From Acidimicrobiia bacterium (GTDB lineage: Bacteria; Actinomycetota; Acidimicrobiia; Acidimicrobiales; JANYDT01): a stretch of 55,682 nt of DNA. The stretch spans positions 1-55,682 of the forward strand of contig JANOHI010000019.1 in NCBI GenBank assembly GCA_031406385.1. The letters run 5' to 3'. This document shows, one piece after another, positions 2,781-52,656 of this stretch (positions are counted from its first letter, which is position 1; each line of letters opens with the position of its first letter). A program made the position numbers and the translations under genes. Below the pieces are notes generated by a model. It saw only the letters and a list, made by a program, of their open reading frames with translations. It was not told the origin of the DNA and ran no database searches.

Positions 2781-8101
<5,321 letters not shown>

Positions 8102-48688: not shown

Positions 48689-48751
48689 CGTGACCGACCT
48701 CCGTCGAAGTTGTACAGGAATACGCAACTACGCGACGGTAGCCGGTGGACC

Positions 48752-48824
48752 CGCTGGGAGAGAGGTTGCCCCAATTCCTAGGGGCAAAACACCTCCCAAC
48801 GCCGTTCGGAGGTGTTCTCCCGCA
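48752..48824 (+). repeat. 73-bp double-hairpin repeat, copy A
   Basis: cgctgggagagaggttgccccaattcctaggggcaaaacacctcccaacgccgttcggaggtgttctcccgca; 61/73 identical (hand alignment) to the reverse complement of 50127-50199. Confidence 0.9.
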
Positions 48825-48857
48825 TCGGTCCCGGTGGCAGGGCTGCCCGCGCCGTCC

Positions 48858-48948
48858 CCACCACAGCATTCGCCACCACAGCATTCGCCACCACGCCGTT
48901 CCGCACCCCACCATTTCCGCACCACTCCGTTCCCTGCGTCACCATTCC
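48858..48948 (+). repeat. Degenerate 15-bp tandem repeat (about 6 units)
   Basis: ccaccacagcattcg x2 exact, then ccaccacgccgttcc, gcaccccaccatttcc, gcaccactccgttcc, ctgcgtcaccattcc. Confidence 0.75.
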
Positions 48949-49079
48949 CTGGGTTGTGCCCCTGCACCGGAGCACCGCAGGAGCGGCAAACACTGTTGAT
49001 CGCCGCGCCGATCCGCCGGATCGTCGATGCCGGTCGACTCCCAGGAGACATCCGGGAGACGAATCGACATCATGGCGTC

Positions 49080-50078
49080 ATGGAGAGCAACCAATACAAC
49101 ACCGACCGAATCTTCACTGCCCTGGCTGCCGCGCAGCACGGTGCCGTCACACGTCCGCAGTTGCTGGAGGCTGGAGTCGCCGCGCACACGGTCGACCGTC
49201 GCCTCGCGGCAGGGATCTGGCGCACGATCGCGCCAGCAATCCTCACCGCAGCGTCAGCGGAACCGACATGGCGAACGCTCGCAACGGCCGCATTGCTCGA
49301 AGCCCACTGCGACGCGGTGCTTGCCGGACGCACGGCGCTCGCCATGTTCGGGCTCGACCTCGCCATCCACCTCGATCAGCCACCGACGCTGCTCGTTCCC
49401 CACACGAAGACCCACGAAAGCGCGATTGCCGAGGTCCGCCAAGTGAAGCATTGGCCCGCCGAGGAGATCGAGACACTCCCGGCGACTTCTTACGTAGAAG
49501 GCGCGTCCCCCCTGCGAGCGACGAACCCGGCGCGATCGCTCGTCGACCTGAGTGTGTGGACGCCGCCGTCGCAGTGGGATCAGTTCGAACGGATCCTCGA
49601 CGCCGCACATCGCCTCCGGATCGCTTCATATGACGACGTCCAAGTCAGTGTGGAGCGGGCCCGACTGCTGCGACGCCGGGGCCTGCGGCCCATCAACGCT
49701 CTTCTGGCGACGCGTACCGGTCGGCAGCCCGCTATCGCGACGAGCGAACTCGAAGCCCTCGCCCATCGCAAGTTCGTTCGCTACGGCGTCGGGTCACTCG
49801 TCCAGTTCGAGGTCCCCCACCCGGCCTATCCCGGACGCAACAAGCGCGCCGACGGAGTCTGCTCATCGACACAGGCCATCTTCGAATTCGACAGCCGCCT
49901 GTGGCACCTCCGCGATTCCCAGTTCTCGGCGGACCGGGCCCGAGACGCTCGATCGGCAGCGCTCGGCTGGATCACCGTGCGCCTGACGTGGGCCGATTTC
50001 ACCCTCCACGACGCCGCCACCCGCACGCTGGTGCGCCGCGTGTGCGGGCTCGACGGAGGCTTCCGCCCGGCGGCGTGA
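49080..50078 (+). CDS. AbiEi-like wHTH + DUF559/Vsr-like endonuclease protein
   Basis: N-terminal AAAQHGAVTRPQLLEAG; C-terminal SELE, RAD, FEFDSRLWH, DRARD, GWITVRLTW. Confidence 0.82.
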   Translation: MESNQYNTDRIFTALAAAQHGAVTRPQLLEAGVAAHTVDRRLAAGIWRTIAPAILTAASAEPTWRTLATAALLEAHCDAVLAGRTALAMFGLDLAIHLDQPPTLLVPHTKTHESAIAEVRQVKHWPAEEIETLPATSYVEGASPLRATNPARSLVDLSVWTPPSQWDQFERILDAAHRLRIASYDDVQVSVERARLLRRRGLRPINALLATRTGRQPAIATSELEALAHRKFVRYGVGSLVQFEVPHPAYPGRNKRADGVCSSTQAIFEFDSRLWHLRDSQFSADRARDARSAALGWITVRLTWADFTLHDAATRTLVRRVCGLDGGFRPAA

Positions 50079-50126
50079 GGAACGGAGGCGCCGACCCGAC
50101 CGTGAGCTGGATGAGTCTTGCCGTGC

Positions 50127-50199
50127 TGCGGCAAAACACCTCCCAACGCTGCTGGGAGGTGTTTAGCCCCCATATCTTGGGGCAACCTCTCTCCCAGCG
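50127..50199 (-). repeat. 73-bp double-hairpin repeat, copy B (inverted relative to A)
   Basis: tgcggcaaaacacctcccaacgctgctgggaggtgtttagcccccatatcttggggcaacctctctcccagcg. Confidence 0.9.
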
Positions 50200-50214
50200 C
50201 GTCGGCCCGAACGC

Positions 50215-52460: not shown

Positions 52461-52559
52461 GAGGAGGCCCCGGCCAAGAGGTCCCCACTGCGGGAGTTCG
52501 CCTCGGGTACCTCCGTTTCCTCGTTTCCGCCCGCTTGCTGTGACCGCCGTTCCGGGGCC

Positions 52560-52632
52560 TGCAGCAAAGCACCTCCCAACGACGTGCGGAGGTGTTTTGC
52601 CCCCATCTATGGGGGCAACCTCTCTCCCAACG
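52560..52632 (-). repeat. 73-bp double-hairpin repeat, solo copy C (same orientation as B)
   Basis: tgcagcaaagcacctcccaacgacgtgcggaggtgttttgcccccatctatgggggcaacctctctcccaacg; 61/73 identical to copy B. Confidence 0.9.
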
Positions 52633-52656
52633 CACCAAAGCTGCCGACAACGAGGT

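Follow-up and report, generated by a model that had tools for sequence, protein, structure and literature searches.

We analysed a stretch of 55,682 nucleotides from an Acidimicrobiia bacterium (hereafter the window; contig JANOHI010000019.1 of assembly GCA_031406385.1), which forms contig C495 of genome G000, a draft metagenome-assembled genome (MAG) of 5.24 Mb in 500 contigs with 65% G+C. In this window, a single gene for a putative nuclease is bracketed by inverted copies of a structured repeat of about 72 nt, and the association between gene and repeat proved robust and repeated in independent lineages. The repeat probably constitutes a family that resembles repetitive extragenic palindromic (REP) elements, with the bracketed gene encoding its dedicated partner, which would make the pair a functional analogue of the systems formed by REPs or their doublets (REPINs) and REP-associated tyrosine transposases (RAYTs). 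By this analogy, we infer that the protein binds and nicks the repeats and brings about their spread.

The nuclease gene (49080–50078, + strand, 332 amino acids) is the sole open reading frame (ORF) between the two copies, and its start at 49080 is backed by the alignment of orthologs. Copy A (48752–48826, − strand), detected by an inverted-repeat search and matched by nhmmer at 48756–48822 with 70.0 bits, lies in the divergent region between a membrane-protein gene and the nuclease gene, and consists of two hairpins and a conserved pyrimidine-rich tail facing away from the gene. Copy B (50126–50200, + strand), found by the repeat search and matched by nhmmer at 50128–50195 with 69.5 bits, is inverted relative to copy A, also has its tail pointing outward from the gene, and is located between the stop codon of the gene and the 3′ end of a convergent acyl-CoA synthetase gene. 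The z-scores for folding as single-stranded DNA (ssDNA) were −4.4 for copy A and −4.05 for copy B. The inverted arms (48748–48824 and 50127–50203) measure 77 nt, are 83% complementary and lie 1302 nt apart, and the hairpin motif occurs at three loci in the window (six strand matches) against 0.02 expected from 100 shuffles. The repeat search bore out a preliminary description of this locus, made from the sequence of the window, which had copies A and B facing each other with 61 of 73 positions identical and a third copy 2.4 kb away. Neither an AbiEii gene nor a transposase gene adjoins the nuclease gene according to Pfam searches of the neighbours, the remaining genome not having been searched for AbiEii, and no target-site duplication was seen across 69 aligned repeat copies with flanks, as that description had also stated for the locus.

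Genome-wide, the repeat proved to be a dispersed extragenic family, in keeping with the same description: an iterated nhmmer search of G000 returned 151 strand matches, corresponding to 77 non-overlapping loci on 58 contigs, of which 73 are intergenic when judged by a purpose-built codon-model gene caller (4,933 genes, 88% coding). With the repeat set to the + strand, 19 loci lie between convergent genes, 43 between co-directional genes, seven between divergent genes and four at contig ends; the repeats thus sit mostly at gene 3′ ends, which is the usual REP pattern. Copy C (52559–52633, + strand; nhmmer 63.6 bits), a solo copy 3′ of an inorganic pyrophosphatase gene that was found by a direct-repeat search as 84% identical to 50126–50200 and 2433 nt downstream of it, counts among the usual scattered copies of the family; its site is also occupied in G003 (L013 665–732), and no counterpart was present in the 10 kb examined at the G018 locus (L086).

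The repeat unit comprises a 14-bp hairpin 1 with a CACCTCC/GGAGGTG core, a short G+C hairpin 2 and a pyrimidine-rich tail, GGGCAACCTCTCTC, which is a diverged third copy of the first-hairpin arm. Most copies are asymmetric with a single tail, and a minority carry a second, inverted tail on the opposite side and are fully palindromic. Folded as single strands, the copies lie far below their shuffled counterparts (z about −4), and no variation occurs in the hairpin-1 core, in the hairpin-2 stem or in the tail across the 70 aligned copies, among which two stem pairs alternate between A-T and G-C via G-T intermediates. Wobble pairs differ by strand (47 G-T vs 27 A-C), an asymmetry that is suggestive only, the copies not being independent. 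At gathering thresholds, Rfam returned no match in the whole window, and neither a GTAG nor a CGTC tag is present beside the stems in the 78-column consensus of the 70 copies.

Several further features of the repeats were observed. Within the hairpin-1 core of the three window copies (48790–48814, 50137–50161 and 52570–52594), a Shine-Dalgarno-like GGAGGTG pairs with CACCTCC, a sequence that we take to resemble the 3′ end of 16S rRNA, and the tail repeats CCTC; a role at the RNA level, in transcripts running through the repeats, is conceivable. Many loci (for example on contigs C489, C215, C153, C41, C428, C353 and C80) show a second conserved sequence, with the motif GTGTTGCGAGCAGTCGAGCG, about 10–15 nt past the tail, which suggests a composite arrangement with another repeat family, similar to the bacterial interspersed mosaic elements (BIMEs). 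On C282 (11222–12734), an ORF named from its translation as an ISL3-like transposase lies between two same-orientation partial repeat matches covering model positions 41–68 and 1–52, which overlap by 12 positions; this looks like an insertion sequence (IS) that entered a repeat copy with a short duplication. In Proteobacteria, REPs serve as IS targets.

The encoded protein combines two regions, an AbiEi-like winged helix-turn-helix (wHTH) followed by an AbiEi C-domain at residues ~1–215, and a Vsr/DUF559/MTES_1575-like PD-(D/E)xK nuclease region with D258, E269, D271 and H276 at residues ~225–320. An AlphaFold2 model built from an alignment of 15 relatives (A1) reached a mean predicted local distance difference test (pLDDT) score of 87.7. 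Compared with the Protein Data Bank (PDB) by Foldseek, the modelled N-terminal two thirds appeared similar to the AbiEi antitoxin 6y8q (E 1e-5) and to Rv2827c (1zel), and the modelled C-terminal third to Vsr (1cw0 and 1vsr, prob 1.00), to the DUF559 protein NGO0050 (3hrl, prob at least 0.99, TMt 0.71) and to the catalytic domain of the homing endonuclease I-Bth0305I (3r3p, TMt 0.70). PADLOC AbiEi models matched the N-terminal 180 residues (E 5.5e-9). Pfam placed the window protein below threshold for AbiEi_4 (20.2 bits vs a cut-off of 25) and for AbiEi_3_N, with no match to DUF559 or MTES_1575 at E ≤ 0.01, and NCBIfam gave no match to the window protein. Across the 15 relatives in the alignment, Pfam recognised MTES_1575 in nine, AbiEi_4 in seven and DUF559 in three, and the profile of the alignment searched against PDB sequences found only 3hrl (E 0.16). 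Foldseek and PADLOC therefore agree with the initial assignment of a wHTH plus a Vsr/DUF559-like domain to the single gene between the copies, and the candidate catalytic residues picked out at that stage (RAD, EFD and H), putative equivalents of those of Vsr, are kept: E269, D271 and H276, together with D285, R286, R288 and D289, are invariant in 15 of 15 aligned sequences, and D258 is found in 14 of 15, with Y in the G001 ortholog.

The gene is single-copy, as tblastn in G000 matched only the gene itself. Pairwise dN/dS was 0.11–0.18 for the closest species and did not exceed 0.26 in any of the eight ortholog pairs, against 0.04–0.05 for a neighbouring carboxyltransferase gene, indicating that the nuclease gene is functional but fast-evolving. 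No match to the RAYT family Y1_Tnp (PF01797) was found in G000; a control search found PF01797 in 6 of 14 named genomes.

Orthologs were found in 9 of the 28 genomes sampled from the family, seven of them in the genus of the window (g1) and two in a second genus (g6), with 47–78% identity. In all nine, inverted repeat copies enclose the gene at one and the same site, where it adjoins the acyl-CoA synthetase gene at its 3′ end, although the two flanks in G006 are on two overlapping contigs and the synthetase-side copy in G018 is reduced to a tail and a different hairpin. By blastn, five g1 genomes are colinear with G000, and only G004, G018 and G042 carry the gene in the opposite orientation within its pair of repeats. 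In each genome, the flanking copies belong to its own repeat variant, as seen with G004, G001 and G018: the flank repeat of G004 matches over its full length at ~20 loci in G004 and in its tail half only in other genomes, and those of G001 and G018 behave alike. The persistence of flanking inverted copies and the co-variation of repeat variant and gene across genomes are both as would be expected from the preliminary description. The G001 repeat family is conserved chiefly in its tail half.

As a control for inheritance of the sites themselves, 40 repeat sites of G018 were placed on G000 by their flanking genes, 35 of which were placeable. Apart from the gene locus, a repeat was shared between G018 and G000 at only 1 of 34 placed sites, and at this other shared site G018 carries the G018 variant and G000 the G000 variant. 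Repeat sites therefore turn over almost completely between the genera, while the gene flanks persist and track the variant. Support for a link between gene and repeat comes from comparing genomes.

More distant homologs are accompanied by other repeat families. For 24 loci from other Acidimicrobiia, 23 of which were evaluable and whose proteins share 25–40% identity with one another, we compared the 450 nt upstream of the gene with the 450 nt downstream of it and scored the best inverted repeat that they form, taking scores of at least 18 as strong. Ten of the 23 reached this level (range 18–85), compared with 0 of 400 randomly drawn G000 genes that were similar in length, which scored 16 at most. 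Each flank arm is itself a hairpin, with a sequence unrelated from one paralog to the next; in G028, three paralogs with 63–68% identity share a common outer frame around a different inner hairpin. There are two repeat types in G027 and four in G028, one per paralog, consistent with the proposal that paralogs each carry a repeat type of their own. All six flank motifs tested are dispersed essentially in their own genome only. The motifs of L011 (G027; 51 half-sites, or ~26 palindromes), L114 (G027; 22 matches), L117 (G028; 10) and L131 (G032; 59) gave no match in four other genomes, that of L123 (G028; six matches) gave none in 40 other genomes, and that of L115 (G028; five matches) gave a single match, with three mismatches, in 40 other genomes. 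Such paralog-specific repeats suggest that protein and repeat are matched to each other, and speak against repeats landing near these genes in general. Across a phylum sample, a homolog was present in 62 of 201 genomes, a tally that includes six unpublished genomes, on which no other result depends; among the 24 published loci retrieved from this sample, 2 scored at least 18 and one scored 17.

The distribution of the repeats largely follows that of the gene. Counting the tail motif with at most one mismatch, for which a reversed-pattern control gave 0–2 matches, we obtained 22–129 in the seven g1 genomes with an ortholog (G000, G001, G002, G004, G005, G006 and G008), and 48 and 6 in the two such g6 genomes (G018 and G042, respectively). 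No ortholog was found in two further g1 genomes, G003 (126 tails) and G007 (0), in three further g6 genomes, G013 (20), G043 (21) and G023 (1), in 29 genomes outside both genera (0–1), or in G041 of genus g3, which was searched separately (0). Two genomes inside the clade thus lack both gene and repeats. In G007, which sits inside genus g1 in a single-gene tree, no ortholog was detected, BLAST with the repeat gave 0 matches, and the site is empty, with the synthetase gene running straight into the membrane-protein gene; in G023, the gene is missing at the site and there are almost no repeats. G013, the sister of G018, is a case of true gene loss, in which a tail-hairpin-tail palindrome is left after the synthetase stop (L017, G013:C167 ~3066–3107) that looks like the footprint of a lost cassette or a minimal ancestral element. 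Empty sites in relatives, which had been suggested as something to look for, are therefore represented by G007, G023 and, with its short remnant, G013. In this single sister pair, perfect 14-nt tails make up 6 of 19 in G013 vs 32 of 42 in G018, and the hairpins of G013 are weaker than those of G018 (Mann-Whitney p = 0.047).

Absence of the gene has to be read with the state of the assemblies in mind. Independent assemblies were seen to break exactly at the repeats (G003 contigs C259 and C184, G005, G006 and the Logan contigs of sequencing runs X1–X4); MAGs can therefore readily miss the nuclease gene, and apparent absences call for caution. In G003, both contigs due to flank the gene (C259 and C184) end at or inside repeats, leaving its absence undecided, and G043, in whose assembly the gene was not found, is 78% complete.

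If the protein acts on the repeats as we propose, its wHTH region would recognise the conserved CACCTC/GAGGTG core of hairpin 1 and the related tail motif, as AbiEi does with its promoter repeats, and the nuclease domain would nick the repeat or its immediate surroundings. When the nick is repaired or replicated, repeat sequence could then be copied between sites, by homing-like gene conversion or by occasional new insertion, and such copying would preserve the homogeneity of the family within a genome and allow it to persist; the gene-adjacent copies would double as the operator of the gene. The synonymous divergence (dS) between G000 and its closest species is 0.5–0.9, and repeat copies are up to 99% identical across them despite this distance, indicating that the family is strongly constrained or homogenised. 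More tentatively, as a possibility somewhat short of an even chance, AbiEi-wHTH/Vsr-like nucleases may be another class of enzymes associated with repeats, of an evolutionary origin separate from that of the HUH enzymes and spread through Actinomycetota, in which each paralog would recognise, nick and thereby propagate or homogenise its own hairpin family by homing-like conversion and not by ssDNA transposition; this might also explain some of the REP families lacking a RAYT, and why solitary AbiEi/DUF559 genes are so abundant in actinobacterial genomes.

A number of observations weigh against a dedicated partnership of this kind. The double flank in G000 is not significant when taken alone, about one being expected by chance from 73 intergenic copies in ~4,900 gaps, and inverted copies on G000 contig C165 bracket alanine dehydrogenase-like and Lrp-like genes (named from their translations). 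Similarly, inverted triple arrays of the G032 repeat with a 71–72-nt period bracket a 310-aa ORF (L163, G032:C2:56300–59300, 1062–1994, − strand), and bracketing is therefore not exclusive to nuclease genes; from its sequence, this ORF looks AhpD/carboxymuconolactone-decarboxylase-like, unlike the nuclease family. Strong flanking repeats are missing in 13 of the 23 distant homologs and in 22 of the 24 phylum-sampled homologs, meaning that the bracketed state marks part of the family and not all of it. The G001 ortholog (L006, C55, 1123–2112, − strand) has Y for D258, yet G001 holds 42 tail matches, and three genomes (G003, G013 and G043) have repeats with no gene found. The co-occurrence of gene and repeats rests on related genomes, and the single-gene tree leaves the sister relation of the two genera unresolved. 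Mobility, in turn, is backed by neither a target-site duplication nor a recent insertion. The repeat sites are stable, with six of six tested sites (on two contigs) occupied in the five closest species where contigs allow, and no insertion polymorphism was found at these six sites in the five species, so that, with no target-site duplication either, recent transposition is unsupported; such stable sites fit maintenance by conversion at least as well as transposition. These six sites often hold doublets in the closest species.

These points have to be set against what other explanations would make of the same data. The protein might be a sequence-specific DNA-binding regulator or a chromosome-architecture factor, with the repeats as dispersed sites that selection keeps because they serve the host (in termination, mRNA stability or the organisation of domains), the copies beside the gene as an autoregulatory operator, and a nuclease domain that takes no part in making or spreading repeats. 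This is unlikely in our assessment, even though the AbiEi-type wHTH fold seen by Foldseek and PADLOC, the autoregulation of AbiEi via promoter repeats, the location of repeats chiefly at gene 3′ ends, and the strong constraint on repeat sequence together with the same sites in the closest species would all suit it; it leaves unexplained the rise and spread of unrelated hairpin families with each paralog, the near-complete turnover of sites between genera while the gene flanks stay, and nuclease residues conserved under purifying selection. It is distinctly improbable that the gene with its two repeats is a present or recent autonomous mobile or homing element, whose nuclease serves its own movement and whose dispersed copies are miniature derivatives or solo ends. 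The inverted terminal arrangement, the minority of copies that are fully palindromic with tails at both ends, a predicted fold that would resemble homing and retroelement endonucleases (3r3p, R2), the presence or absence of the gene at one site across genomes and its differing orientation between the repeats in G004, G018 and G042 are what such an element might display, but each genome has a single copy, whose syntenic site is shared by two genera although protein identity falls as low as 48–49%, and no second copy, target duplication or transposase accompanies it.

The remaining two explanations have far less probability. That there is no functional link, REP-like elements having gathered near these genes by insertion preference or chance and the association having been inherited, is very improbable: the roughly one doubly flanked gene per genome expected by chance in G000 and the other genes lying between inverted copies on C165 and in G032 speak for it, but it would have to accommodate flanks at nine of nine orthologs vs conservation of 1 of 34 other sites between genera, flanks at 10 of 23 distant homologs vs 0 of 400 controls, paralogs in one genome with different repeat types, and two genomes that lost both gene and repeats. 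Hardly to be entertained is the view that the protein is an AbiEi antitoxin left without its partner, from a type IV toxin-antitoxin (TA) or abortive-infection system, to which the PADLOC match (E 5.5e-9) and the Foldseek similarity to 6y8q lend themselves; no AbiEii gene is adjacent, the conserved nuclease domain is one that AbiEi lacks, and the conserved context consists of repeats and not of a toxin. The proposal that the gene belongs to a REP analogue rather than to a TA antitoxin, with which the preliminary description had ended, is thereby supported, there being no AbiE pair at the locus.

Other features of the window are less directly connected with the pair. A tandem repeat (48858–48894, + strand; 15-nt unit, 2.5 copies, Tandem Repeats Finder) lies between copy A and the start of the gene; it is perfect over this interval, and degenerate copies seem to continue to ~48940. 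The neighbouring genes encode an AMP-binding acyl-CoA synthetase, a small membrane protein without a Pfam family, the pyrophosphatase and a cupin. The stretch is present in four DNA runs of one study, labelled as freshwater sediment metagenome, and in no listed RNA run, and the Logan contigs of runs X1–X4 break at both window repeats (48752–48826 and 50126–50200). Joints are few in these contigs, namely a single opposite-strand joint at 48817/50167, confined to one contig, and skips whose sides are short; they are indistinguishable from other repeat copies and give no evidence for or against inversion or excision.

To our knowledge, no enzymes other than RAYTs have yet been connected with REP-type repeats. 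In the titles and abstracts found by our literature searches, nothing links DUF559/AbiEi-type proteins to REP-like repeats, and an earlier description may exist. If the reading of a dedicated partner is correct, the arrangement of a domesticated enzyme together with its repeat population would have evolved more than once, and AbiEi_4-DUF559, a very common and functionally blank actinobacterial family, would gain a testable role; the natural pairs of protein and hairpin would also offer differing sequence specificities for biochemistry. On the practical side, the repeats explain a nuisance, in that metagenome assemblies of these organisms break exactly there.

The system shares features with several known ones. 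AbiEi autoregulates via inverted repeats in its own promoter. The AbiEi antitoxin of the type IV TA system AbiE, and Rv2827c, have the same N-terminal wHTH and following domain by predicted fold and by profile, but here no AbiEii partner is adjacent, a nuclease is fused at the C-terminus, and the conserved partner is a repeat family. Vsr acts alone as an enzyme that nicks at mismatches and is linked to a cytosine methyltransferase, and I-Bth0305I resides in a phage intron. The Vsr/DUF559/MTES_1575 nucleases, I-Bth0305I included, appear to share the C-terminal fold and the E-x-D...H motif with an upstream D; unlike the protein described here, neither Vsr nor I-Bth0305I is known to be associated with a family of dispersed repeats. 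A survey of PD-(D/E)xK nucleases groups VSR, DUF559 and DUF2726, and in the portion of that survey dealing with this group the functions named are only Vsr repair and intron homing (PMC3424549). Free-standing homing endonuclease genes are recognised by presence or absence at one site together with cleavage of the empty allele. The present gene is missing from the syntenic site in G007, G023 and G013; homing genes are not characterised by a family of dispersed repeats. With miniature inverted-repeat transposable elements (MITEs) and IS elements, the repeats have in common inverted ends, small size and intergenic dispersal, and one copy carries the ISL3-like insertion, but neither a DDE transposase nor one of another kind accompanies them, target-site duplications were not seen, and most copies are single-tailed. 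Among REPs, a tetranucleotide at the foot of the hairpin, GTAG or CGTC, is given as defining REP classes, and one super-family is described as one that 'apparently lack[s] a dedicated transposase' (PMC3733652). Such orphan classes (for example, the CGTC-tagged one) resemble the present family in being REPs in genomes without an associated RAYT, but they are mainly alphaproteobacterial and have a unit of 20–40 bp.

The closest parallel is with the REP/REPIN-RAYT systems of Proteobacteria. There, short extragenic palindromic repeats number from tens to hundreds per genome, a gene present once and inherited vertically lies between inverted copies, RAYT paralogs each have their own repeat type, and repeats become fewer and more degenerate after gene loss. 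The Acidimicrobiia system is alike in its high-copy extragenic palindromic repeats, in a single-copy gene, inherited vertically, between inverted copies of its own family, in an own repeat type per paralog, and in repeats that are fewer and more degenerate where the gene has been lost. It differs in its host, an actinobacterium of the Acidimicrobiia, in a larger unit with two hairpins and a conserved single-stranded tail and no GTAG tag, and in its enzyme, which by structure prediction has an AbiEi and Vsr fold and not that of an HUH Y1 tyrosine transposase of the IS200/IS605-like kind; with a different enzyme class, the chemistry must differ from HUH transposition of ssDNA. By analogy, the pair of gene and repeat would work like a REP-RAYT system without being a member of that family, since its enzyme belongs to another class.

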